A stretch of 25,935 bases of DNA from a virus. Taxonomy: Duplodnaviria > Heunggongvirae > Uroviricota > Caudoviricetes. Where the stretch lies: the IMG/VR virus record IMGVR_UViG_2636415858_000002, positions 1 through 25,935 of that record, one strand, 5' to 3'. The translations under genes and the position numbers were made by a program. Of this stretch, positions 3,901 to 6,017 are shown one piece after another (within the stretch, counting starts at the first letter, position 1; every line of letters starts with the position of its first letter). The notes beneath the pieces were generated by a model. That model had not been told where the DNA came from. It ran no database searches and saw only the letters and a list, made by a program, of their open reading frames with translations.

Positions 3901-4126
3901 CTCTTTCAAATGTCCATGTGAAGTGGTCAACAAAAACTGGCCACCGAGTTAGAGTTTTTCCAGTATCGATTTTCCGATTCGTTTGGGGGTAACCCACCGT
4001 TATATTCGTGCGGTCTTAGTGCGCTGTAATATCCAACGATATAGTCCGTTATGGCGTGAGCTGCCTCGCTGGGTAATGCTGCCAACTTACTGATTTAGTG
4101 TATGATGGTGATTTTAAGGTGCTTGC

Positions 4127-4402
4127 GTGGCTTCCATTTCCATCAGATGTCCTTCCTGCTCCGCTACTGAAGGCGTGGTGCGTAACGGCAAAAGCACTGC
4201 CGGACATCAGCGCTATCTCTGCTCTCATTGCCGTAAAACATGGCAACTACAGTTCACTTACACTGCCTCTCAGCCCGGTACGCACCAGAAAATCATTGAT
4301 ATGGCCATGAATGGCGTCGGATGTCGCGCCAGTGCACGCATTATGGGCGTTGGCCTCAACACGGTTTTACGTCACTTAAAAAACTCAGGCCGCAGTCGGT
4401 AA
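4127..4402 (+). CDS. insA: IS1 InsA
   Basis: Same 91-aa protein as 1151..1426. Confidence 0.9.
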
Positions 4403-4824
4403 CCTCGCGCATACAACCGGGCAGTGATGTGATTGTCTGCGCTGAAATGGACGAACAGTGGGGCTACGTCGGTGCTAAATCACGTCAGCGCTGGCTGTTT
4501 TACGCGTATGACAGGATACGGAGGACGGTTGTGGCGCACGTCTTCGGTGAACGCACTCTGGCCATACTGGAGCGTCTTCTGAGCCTGCTGTCGGCCTTTG
4601 AGGTCGTGGTATGGATGACGGATGGCTGGCCGCTGTATGAATCACGCCTGAAGGGAAAGCTGCACGTTATCAGCAAGCGTTACACTCAGCGCATTGAGCG
4701 ACATAATCTGAATCTGAGACAACATCTGGCAAGGCTGGGACGGAAGTCACTGTCGTTCTCAAAATCGGTGGAGCTGCATGACAAGGTCATCGGGCATTAT
4801 CTGAACATAAAACACTATCAGTAA
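4321..4824 (+). CDS. insB: IS1 InsB frame
   Basis: 167-aa ORF; one aa difference (TLAILERLL vs TLATLERLL) from the copy at 729..1232. Confidence 0.85.
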
Positions 4825-4839
4825 GTTGGAGTCATTACC

Positions 4840-5543
4840 GCCTCGCTGAAGCTTACGTAACCCACCACCGGCATCCATTCGTTCTTCAGACTCCTGAAGA
4901 AGCGTTCCATTGGGCTGTTATCCCAGCAGTTTCCGCGCCGGCTCATACTCTGTCTGATCTGGTATCGCCACAATAACTGCCGGAACTGCCTGCTCGTATA
5001 ATGACTGCCCTGATCGCTGTGGAACATCACCCCGCCGGGCTTACCACGGGTTTCCCATGCCATTTCCAGCGCTTTCATGGTGAGCCTGCTGTCCGGCGAG
5101 AACGACATGGCCCAGCCCACTGGTTTTCTTGCGAACAGGTCGAGAACAACGGCGAGGTACGCCCAGCGCTTACCCGTCCAGATACAGGTCACATCACCGC
5201 ACCACACCTGATTTGGCTCGGTCACGGCGAACTGCCTTTCAAGGTAGTTAGGGATAGCAACATGTTCATGACCACCACGTTTATACCGGTGAGTCGGCTG
5301 CTGACAGCTGACCAGCCCCAGCTCTTTCATGAGCCTGCCAGCAAGCCAGCGTCCCATCTGGTAGCCTCTCCGGGTTGCCATTGTGGCGATGCTTCTTGCT
5401 CCGGCCGAACCATGGCTGATACCATGTAGCTCAAGTACCTGACTGCGTAATACAGCCCGTCTGCCGTCTGGTTTTTCAGGACGGTTTTTCCAGTATCTGT
5501 AGCTGCTGCGATGAACCCCGAACACTTGGCAGAGTGTGACCAC
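4840..5543 (-). pseudogene. insO: IS911 OrfB transposase catalytic frame, disrupted by IS1
   Basis: ORF-track protein carries DDE-region motifs (NQVWCGDVT..., [10 protein letters not shown]...) and runs into IS1 sequence at its C-terminus. Confidence 0.8.
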
Positions 5544-5569
5544 AGGATAATGCGCTCTGAGTTTCCCGA

Positions 5570-5872
5570 TTATCGAGAACTGTTCAGGGAGTCTGACATC
5601 AAGAGCGCGGTAGCCTTTTTTAATATTTCATTCTCCATTTCAATGCGTTGTAGCTTTTTCCTCAGCTTACGTATTTCGATTTGTTCTGGTGTTATCGGAG
5701 AGGCTTTTGGTGTTTTGCCCTGACGCTCATCACGCAGTTGTTTGACCCATCTTGTCATTGTGGAAAGGCCAACATCCATAGCTTTGGCGGCATCTGCCAC
5801 CGTGTATTTCTGGTCAACAACCAGTTGAGCGGATTCGCGTTTAAACTCTGCGCTAAAATTTCTTTTTTTCAT
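5570..5872 (-). CDS. insN: IS911 OrfA
   Basis: [53 protein letters not shown]... Confidence 0.85.
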
Positions 5873-6017
5873 TGGAGCACCTGTGTTGTTCTGAGGTGAG
5901 CATATCACCTCTGTTCAGGTGGCCAAATTCAGTGTGCCACTTCAGGTGCCGAACCTTCCTCCGGATATAATCTGTGATTCCCCAATCAACAGAACCAGAG
6001 GAGGTTCGGCATAAACA

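Follow-up and report, generated by a model that had tools for sequence, protein, structure and literature searches.

IS1 nested in IS911, and IS copies without target duplications at deletion junctions, in a probable prophage remnant of Shigella boydii

Insertion sequences of the IS1 family produce a 9-bp (occasionally 8-bp) target-site duplication upon simple insertion. The window analyzed here, a stretch of DNA of 25,935 nucleotides, contains two nearly identical copies of IS1, and only one of them, nested inside an IS911 element, is bordered by such a duplication. In which order did these elements arrive, and why does the other IS1 stand without a duplication? The features concerned are as follows.

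1..375, minus strand: IS911 copy 1, the IRL-proximal 375 bp (orfA side), cut at the window edge, IRL terminus at 375
714..1481, minus strand: IS1-A, 768 bp, located at the junction of a 4.4-kb deletion and without a target duplication
3919..5944, minus strand: IS911 copy 2, whole, interrupted by IS1-B
3919..4071, minus strand: IRR-proximal 153 bp of IS911 copy 2 (orfB 3' end), IRR terminus TGAAGTGGTCAACAAAAACTGG at 3919
4063..4071, no strand: left copy of the 9-bp target duplication GCCTCGCTG, abutting the IS1-B end
4072..4839, plus strand: IS1-B, 768 bp, with insA at 4127..4402, the insB frame at 4321..4824, and the frameshift motif TTAAAAAAC
4840..4848, no strand: right copy of the 9-bp target duplication GCCTCGCTG, abutting the IS1-B end
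4840..5944, minus strand: IRL-proximal 1105 bp of IS911 copy 2, with orfA at 5570..5908, the A AAA AAG site, and orfB through the rve core; IRL at 5944

Both IS1 copies have the features of the IS1 family: a length of 768 bp, imperfect 23-bp inverted repeats starting with GGTAATG (87% complementary between the arms), and insA/insB' frames (ORFs of 91 aa and 167 aa) with the slippery site TTAAAAAAC at element position 305. The termini of IS1-B are GGTAATGCTGCCAACTTACTGAT and ATCAGTAAGTTGGAGTCATTACC. In the identical RefSeq sequence both copies are labelled "IS1 family transposase", and the counterpart IS1 genes at related loci, including L025 and L004, have the Pfam domains PF03811, PF12759, and PF03400 on record. 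Judged by sequence, the two copies are a Shigella iso-IS1 variant of the IS1 family, sharing ~91% identity with IS1A of the E. coli K-12 type (copy in locus L003). They lie in mutually inverted orientation and differ at 2 of 768 positions, both C/T transitions, one silent in insA and one causing T82I in the insB frame. The 9-bp duplication typical of the family was found for IS1-B, whereas IS1-A departs from the norm in having none and in lying on a deletion junction.

The host element of IS1-B belongs to the IS911 group of the IS3 family. Near-identical copies on Shigella plasmids carry the PGAP label "IS3-like element IS911 family transposase". The reference IS911 is 1250 bp long and the element restored here 1249 bp, with TG...CA ends reading TGAAGTGGCACACTG... 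and TGAAGTGGTCAACAAAA...; the termini shared with IS911 begin with TGAAGTGG..., and the IRR end at 3919 reads TGAAGTGGTCAAC... OrfA (100 aa, Pfam HTH_Tnp_1) is followed by OrfB (Pfam rve), open in the -1 frame, with the A6G frameshift motif TTAAAAAAGG (A AAA AAG).

Comparisons were made with 18 related Shigella chromosomes, obtained by exact-protein look-ups with YdaT and a junction-spanning 147-aa ORF (284..727) as probes. Within the window, the ORF of the ydaE remnant lacks a usable start codon, and the 147-aa ORF served instead as the genome-specific probe.

The preliminary description had placed IS1-B between perfect, directly abutting 9-bp repeats, and a recount of the sequence found GCCTCGCTG at exactly 4063..4071 and 4840..4848. 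The chance of such a 9-bp match is ~4e-6. Excision in silico of 4072..4848 (IS1 and one repeat) leaves an IS911 of 1249 bp, in which orfA and orfB are intact and GCCTCGCTG lies at nt 1097-1105; the restoration of the full reading frame bears out the clean transposition into orfB that had been proposed. This target is single-copy in uninterrupted IS911 copies, where the sequence 3919..4071 is contiguous with that starting at 4849. In IS911 copy 2, OrfB is interrupted after ...VSFSE, with a loss of 44 C-terminal residues, and the Pfam rve match (catalytic core; within residues 108-206 of the truncated ORF) is located upstream of the break. Because IS1-B cuts OrfB, IS911 copy 2 is unable to make a full-length transposase.

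The uninterrupted IS911 expected in related genomes was found in four Shigella chromosomes (CP049281, CP026866, UAUR01000003, and CP026797), all with the identical tRNA|IRR junction, an empty IS1-B site, and a single GCCTCGCTG. The order originally proposed, by which IS911 would have inserted first and IS1 second, is supported by the nesting with an intact duplication, by the restored frame, and by these four chromosomes with the same IS911 junction and no IS1. In principle, the empty site in the second clade could stem from recombination with an uninterrupted IS911 and not from ancestry. A 100-bp query across the left IS911|IS1-B junction (4022..4121) had no one-piece full-length match in 72,556 plasmids and 5,426 E. 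coli genomes, and scanning the GTDB representative genomes, probably including few Shigella genomes, for exact 40-mers gave no match. In a megablast of positions 1..7500 against the plasmids and E. coli genomes, IS matches swamped the output.

Could the nested structure or the near-identical IS copies be an assembly artefact of collapsed or chimeric repeats? IS-rich Shigella regions are difficult to assemble, and CP162059 has, in place of the right flank of IS1-B, 62 bp with no match and then a complete IS911. However, in a census of junctions among related genomes, 10 independent assemblies, complete or near-complete, had both IS911|IS1-B junctions, and the junction itself has the canonical 9-bp duplication and an empty counterpart in other genomes. 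Two substitutions separate the IS1 copies (2/768) and likewise the IS911 copies (2/375 shared positions, 1..375 against 5570..5944), as already pointed out when the copies were first described as distinct and not as assembly duplicates. An artefact of this kind is thus extremely improbable.

The claim that both IS911 copies lack the 3-bp duplication held for copy 2 only, the flanks of which are ATG and GGT. Copy 1 is flanked on both sides by CTG in CP011511.1 (locus L025) and in at least four related genomes (L004, L007, L008, and L010), and the uninterrupted integrase gene, ATGTCTGATAAAAG, contains CTG once. The status of this duplication is unreadable from the window because only 375 bp of copy 1 lie inside it; a duplication is not scorable for an element cut by the window edge. 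Compared with the IS911 norm, copy 2 has no duplication and an orfB cut by IS1, and copy 1 is cut in the source genome by another IS. The latter, a nested 1310-bp IS with a GGT duplication found in copy 1 of CP011511.1, has termini resembling those of IS629. Thus, both IS911 copies of the locus contain a secondary insertion.

The flanks of the duplication-less elements were interpreted against the gene content of the region:

376..713, minus strand: phage integrase gene, internal fragment of 338 bp, between IS911 copy 1 and IS1-A
1482..1762, minus strand: ydaE remnant, the right flank of IS1-A
2999..3918, minus strand: prophage scrap with a truncated holin gene, four tRNA genes, and 128 bp upstream of the tRNAs
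5945..7534, minus strand: prophage immunity region (Pfam and locus comparison), its IS911 boundary a deletion junction
6018..6440, minus strand: ydaT
6424..6651, minus strand: cro-like gene
6728..7135, plus strand: cI-like gene
8799..10077, minus strand: Rha/Ash regulator segment (Pfam match), flipped between perfectly inverted IS600 copies

The window very probably belongs to a defective lambdoid prophage that adjoins ybhA in the gal-mod region on a Shigella boydii chromosome and has been broken up progressively by IS elements; this degree of confidence applies to the whole explanation given here, all five proposed steps taken jointly. The chromosome CP011511.1, that of S. boydii ATCC 9210 (PMC6456863), is identical to window positions 1..10727 (100.000% identity, no gaps, 10.7 kb comparable). 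All non-IS segments of 376..10077 were placed on the intact prophages L001 and L002, and undoing two inversions regains the colinear lambdoid module order int-xis-recombination-immunity-replication-Q-tRNA-lysis-morphogenesis, with the modules int-N..recE and replication..Q deleted. The intact relative L002, which adjoins ybhA in the gal-mod region, has the order int-xis-...-gam-recE-ydaE-rha-cI-cro-ydaT-replication-Q-tRNAs-holin. The IS-scrambled prophage, the deletion junction at IS911 copy 2, and the IS600 inversions described below are points beyond the preliminary description.

The individual segments match intact prophages closely. Segment 376..713 has 100% identity to L002 15001..15338, within the annotated integrase CDS, and weak Pfam hints of Phage_int_SAM_4 and Arm-DNA-bind_1, both under the Pfam curated cut-offs. 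An assignment of this segment to virF was rejected; the "virF" labels came from features between joined IS pieces, and the segment is an integrase fragment. The ydaE remnant has 99.3% identity to the uninterrupted ydaE of EIEC prophages and 79% to L002 19721..20007. Segment 2999..3918 has 100% identity to L001 12001..12920, from the intact prophage of E. coli FDAARGOS_944. Its class II holin gene (Pfam match) is 3'-truncated, with ORF 2996..3187 entering IS600a by 3 nt, and its four tRNA genes (3480..3790, ARAGORN) are Gly-UCC, Thr-UGU, Arg-UCU, and a tRNA with the CAT anticodon labelled tRNA-Ile in RefSeq. A promoter for this tRNA cluster supplied by IS911 was considered and dropped; a promoter-like site at 3829..3800 is already present in the retained 128-bp phage flank.

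IS1-A has the flanks CCGATTCCA and CCATTGCTG, which are unrelated, as had been described. On L002 they map to 15338|15339 and 19720|19721, with order and orientation kept. Because the flanks are colinear and 4382 bp apart in this intact relative, IS1-A is a deletion junction, and for this reason it has no duplication. The missing segment comprises the int N-terminus, xis, an AAA ATPase gene, gam, recE, and a small ORF; deletion sizes given here are approximate, being scaled on the related L002, the identity of which varies from 79% to 100% by module. An ordinary insertion of IS1-A, with a duplication that decayed by point mutation or was never made, predicts ...TTCCGATTCCA directly joined to CCATTGCTGGC... 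in an intact prophage. The two flanks do have CCA in common at the junctions (chance ~1 in 64). However, they are adjacent in no intact relative, and in the prophage of EIEC CFSAN029787, which has the same gene module without IS1, the ydaE-side sequence is unbroken. Ordinary insertion is therefore very hard to credit. The suggestion that IS1-A marks a recombination breakpoint stands insofar as it is a rearrangement breakpoint, namely the junction of the 4382-bp deletion; the IS1 x IS1 route it implied is one of two candidates.

IS911 copy 2 is a deletion junction too, and hence has no 3-bp duplication. Its tRNA-side flank corresponds to L002 29030|29031, upstream of the tRNAs, and its ydaT-side flank ends exactly where the S. 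dysenteriae-type locus L012 runs on into replication genes. On the L002 scale, ~5.7 kb is missing between the flanks, from the replication genes through the Q-like antiterminator gene.

These data suggest the following history. IS911 inserted upstream of the phage tRNA cluster, a step demonstrated by the comparison; its tRNA-side junction is common to 15 of the 18 related genomes. The IRL side of the element was then joined to the ydaT end with the loss of ~5.7 kb, where the deletion is demonstrated and its mechanism is a proposal. IS1 transposed by ordinary cut-and-staggered-join into the 3' part of orfB, duplicating GCCTCGCTG, which is again demonstrated. The IS911 deletion and the IS1 insertion may have occurred in either order. 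The fourth step would be a separate loss of 4382 bp at IS1-A, for which the evidence is inferential.

By which route was DNA lost at IS1-A and at IS911 copy 2? For IS1-A, an adjacent deletion made by the transposase from one IS1 end appears to be the likelier route, ahead of direct IS1 x IS1 recombination, which is a substantial possibility of its own. The adjacent deletion is favored because a second IS1-A endpoint exists and the IRL/ydaT junctions vary. In CP026766 the left junction of IS1-A is the same, and its right end, which in most genomes adjoins ydaE, abuts window position 8848 (the Rha 3' end), deeper in the prophage, in a genome that also has no ydaE and no IS600 insertion x. The IRL end of IS911 abuts ydaT at +0, +28, or +99 bp, depending on the lineage. 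The 28-bp and 99-bp differences, and a deeper IS1-A endpoint with the other junction unchanged, are hard to explain by the alternative that both elements lost their duplications through RecA-dependent recombination between direct copies of the same IS, with deletion of the intervening DNA. The second IS copy required by this alternative was found at the predicted positions in 0 of the 18 related genomes.

On the other side, recombination between IS copies is clearly active at this locus. In S. boydii Sb227 (CP000036), the stretch from IS1-A to IS1-B is inverted and the flanks are hybrid, flanks have been exchanged among IS600 copies, and the CP049281-type IS911 has its IRL at ydaT and its IRR at the integrase C-terminus, as predicted by an IS911 x IS911 inversion. 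IS1 is also locally dense, since CP049285 has an additional IS1 32 bp from IS1-A. Recombination of direct copies is thus a serious contender, although we lean away from it. The sampled genomes contained none of three precursor states: IS1 in int with its own 9-bp duplication (...TTCCGATTCCA|IS1|CCGATTCCAAACTCCC), IS1 beside ydaE with its own 9-bp duplication (...CCCTGCCATTGCTG|IS1|CCATTGCTGGC), and IS911 bordered by a CAT duplication at the tRNA site (...AGCAGACAT|IS911|CATGGACATTTG). Because these states are absent there, adjacent deletion and IS x IS recombination are weighed here on indirect evidence. Tentatively, the fixed IS ends with varying neighbors (the IS911 IRL and the IS1-A left junction) might reflect repeated one-ended adjacent deletions, made by the transposase and eroding the prophage, and not RecA-dependent recombination between IS copies. 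If so, this would be a locus where the share of both routes in Shigella genome reduction is measurable on a phylogeny.

Of the five IS that have expanded in all Shigella species, three are IS1, IS600, and IS911 (Hawkey et al., 2020, PMC7373316), and the expanded IS have been linked to gene disruption, deletions, inter-copy rearrangements, and gene loss (PMC7373316). Insertion sites in that study were mapped from short reads; the present locus is not described there, and the word "nested" is absent from its text. Missing target duplications usually result from IS x IS recombination or adjacent deletion (PMC11708052). As in that work, a duplication-less IS is centered here on a deletion of several kb, and insertions without deletions keep their duplications. 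In contrast, the events described there were observed in real time and involved IS150, IS5, or IS481, whereas those of IS1 and IS911 at this locus are historical and inferred from comparative genomics.

The finding is real and was for the most part rightly interpreted, but it is ordinary: it is routine IS-driven decay of a Shigella prophage, of an already known kind, and nothing suggests a new element or mechanism, or a function beyond genome decay. Its importance beyond annotation is little. Its value is that of a worked example, in which nesting and the presence or absence of duplications yield a relative chronology of IS events, and in which IS1, IS911, and IS600 are seen dismantling an S. 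boydii prophage while the tRNA cluster and the immunity genes are left in place.

The remaining rearrangements of the region involve three IS600 copies:

1763..2998, minus strand: IS600a, with a 27-bp deletion inside the IRR end at 1769|1770
7535..8798, minus strand: IS600b, a hybrid with the IRR flank from insertion y and the IRL flank from insertion x
10078..11341, plus strand: IS600c, in the orientation opposite to that of IS600a and IS600b

Three genomes, L007, L010, and L004, are colinear. In them, insertion x, located between ydaE and rha, is bordered by the duplication GCC, and insertion y, located between rha and the immunity region, by CTA; insertion z, which follows the holin gene, lacks a duplication because it is another deletion junction. 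The inversion history is read from the exchange of these 3-bp flanks. Locus L008 (CP026731) is one x-by-z inversion apart from the colinear genomes. A single change separates L008 from the window: the 1279-bp Rha segment, enclosed by IS600 copies that form a perfect inverted repeat, is flipped. Its orientation in the window is opposite to that in L008 and the same as in L025. The fifth step thus consists of two homologous IS600 x IS600 inversions, first x by z and then the 1.3-kb Rha flip. With the modules in colinear order, the two copies of IS1 are in direct and those of IS911 in inverted orientation, whereas the window shows the reverse. By this comparison of arrangements, the orientation that the IS copies now have towards one another is a secondary product of IS600-mediated inversions; the orientation of an IS copy may postdate its insertion. 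The 27-bp deletion in the IRR end of IS600a is common only to the window and CP011511.1. A 27-bp IS600 remnant beside the CP049281-type IS911 was considered as the piece lost from IS600a and rejected: the two involve opposite IS600 ends, and the equal length is coincidental.

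Over window 1..10727, as far as the L025 locus from Shigella boydii ATCC 9210 (CP011511.1) extends, the two sequences are identical at 10,727/10,727 bp (100.000%; L025 10727..1), with zero gaps. It is thus the genome from which the window comes, or one identical to it, and it holds in full the IS911 copy 1 that is cut by the window edge: 2562 bp at L025 10353..12914, immediately outside the left edge of the window. Of this length, 1249 bp are IS911 itself and 1310 bp are a nested IS3-family element with the ends TGAACCGCCCCGGG..., which we take to be IS629-like; the remaining 3 bp are a GGT duplication. 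The entire IS911 copy 1 is bracketed by a CTG duplication in the integrase gene. In CP026766 (L024 3144..4474), IS911 copy 2 also contains nested insertions: besides IS1, a third element is present, and 5 bp overlap where it is inserted (window 5256..5260). This is the same IS3-family element as the one at window 17263..18420, presumably IS2-like.

In S. boydii Sb227 (CP000036; L018 5363..6130 and ..10014), the two IS1 copies have recombined and the DNA between them is inverted. Neither copy keeps matched flanks, so whether the duplication is perfect, as it is in the window, depends on the lineage. In CP162059 (L017 2257..2320), 62 bp stand in place of the right flank of IS1-B, the copy nested in IS911 copy 2, and are followed by a complete IS911. 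These 62 bp had no match among the other loci compared; either that genome is misassembled here or it has undergone a rearrangement that is unexplained. CP049285 has an additional IS1 (L021 8447..9214), separated by 32 bp from the right end of IS1-A, the copy on the deletion junction. The duplication of this additional IS1 is 8 bp long (AATATTCG) instead of 9 bp.

In IS600a, 27 bp (TACTGGCAATAGCGGACACTACCATTT) are deleted within the terminal inverted repeat (window 1763..1770), a loss expected to immobilise this end of the element. Of the 18 related genomes, only CP011511.1 shares the deletion with the window. Two further IS600 copies, each of 1264 bp and 100% complementary to one another, enclose the 1279-bp Rha/Ash regulator segment (window 7535..11341). 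The orientation of this segment in ATCC 9210 differs from that in CP026731, and the segment therefore behaves as an invertible one.

Downstream of ydaT, the same IS911 IRL terminus is joined at three points depending on the lineage, at +0, +28, and +99 bp. These endpoints resemble a nested series of adjacent deletions. The IRL/ydaT-side junctions are located as follows:
window, between 5944 and 5945
L005, L006, and L012 (loci of other lineages), around 10470..10620

The four phage tRNA genes (within window 3480..3918) have 100% identity to those of an intact prophage, though all adjoining modules are deleted. The tRNA with the CAT anticodon is assigned to Met by ARAGORN and to Ile by the RefSeq annotation. 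Between tRNA-Ile and IS911, 128 bp survive, containing:
3829..3800, minus strand, promoter-like site
about 3878..3905, minus strand, hairpin with a T-run after it, identified by visual inspection (a terminator scan found none)

The rest of the window (11704..25935) is occupied by tail-module genes, interrupted by three elements and ending in an ipaH-type gene:
within 11704..25935, SLT-domain protein, 673 aa
within 11704..25935, Dit-like protein
within 11704..25935, tail fibre protein
within 11704..25935, tail fibre assembly protein
14842..17231, IS66-family element, interrupting the region
within 11704..25935, IS3-family fragment, interrupting the region
20934..22196, fourth IS600, interrupting the region
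24124..25935, minus strand, ipaH-type gene with NEL and LRR domains, at the window end and continuing past the edge
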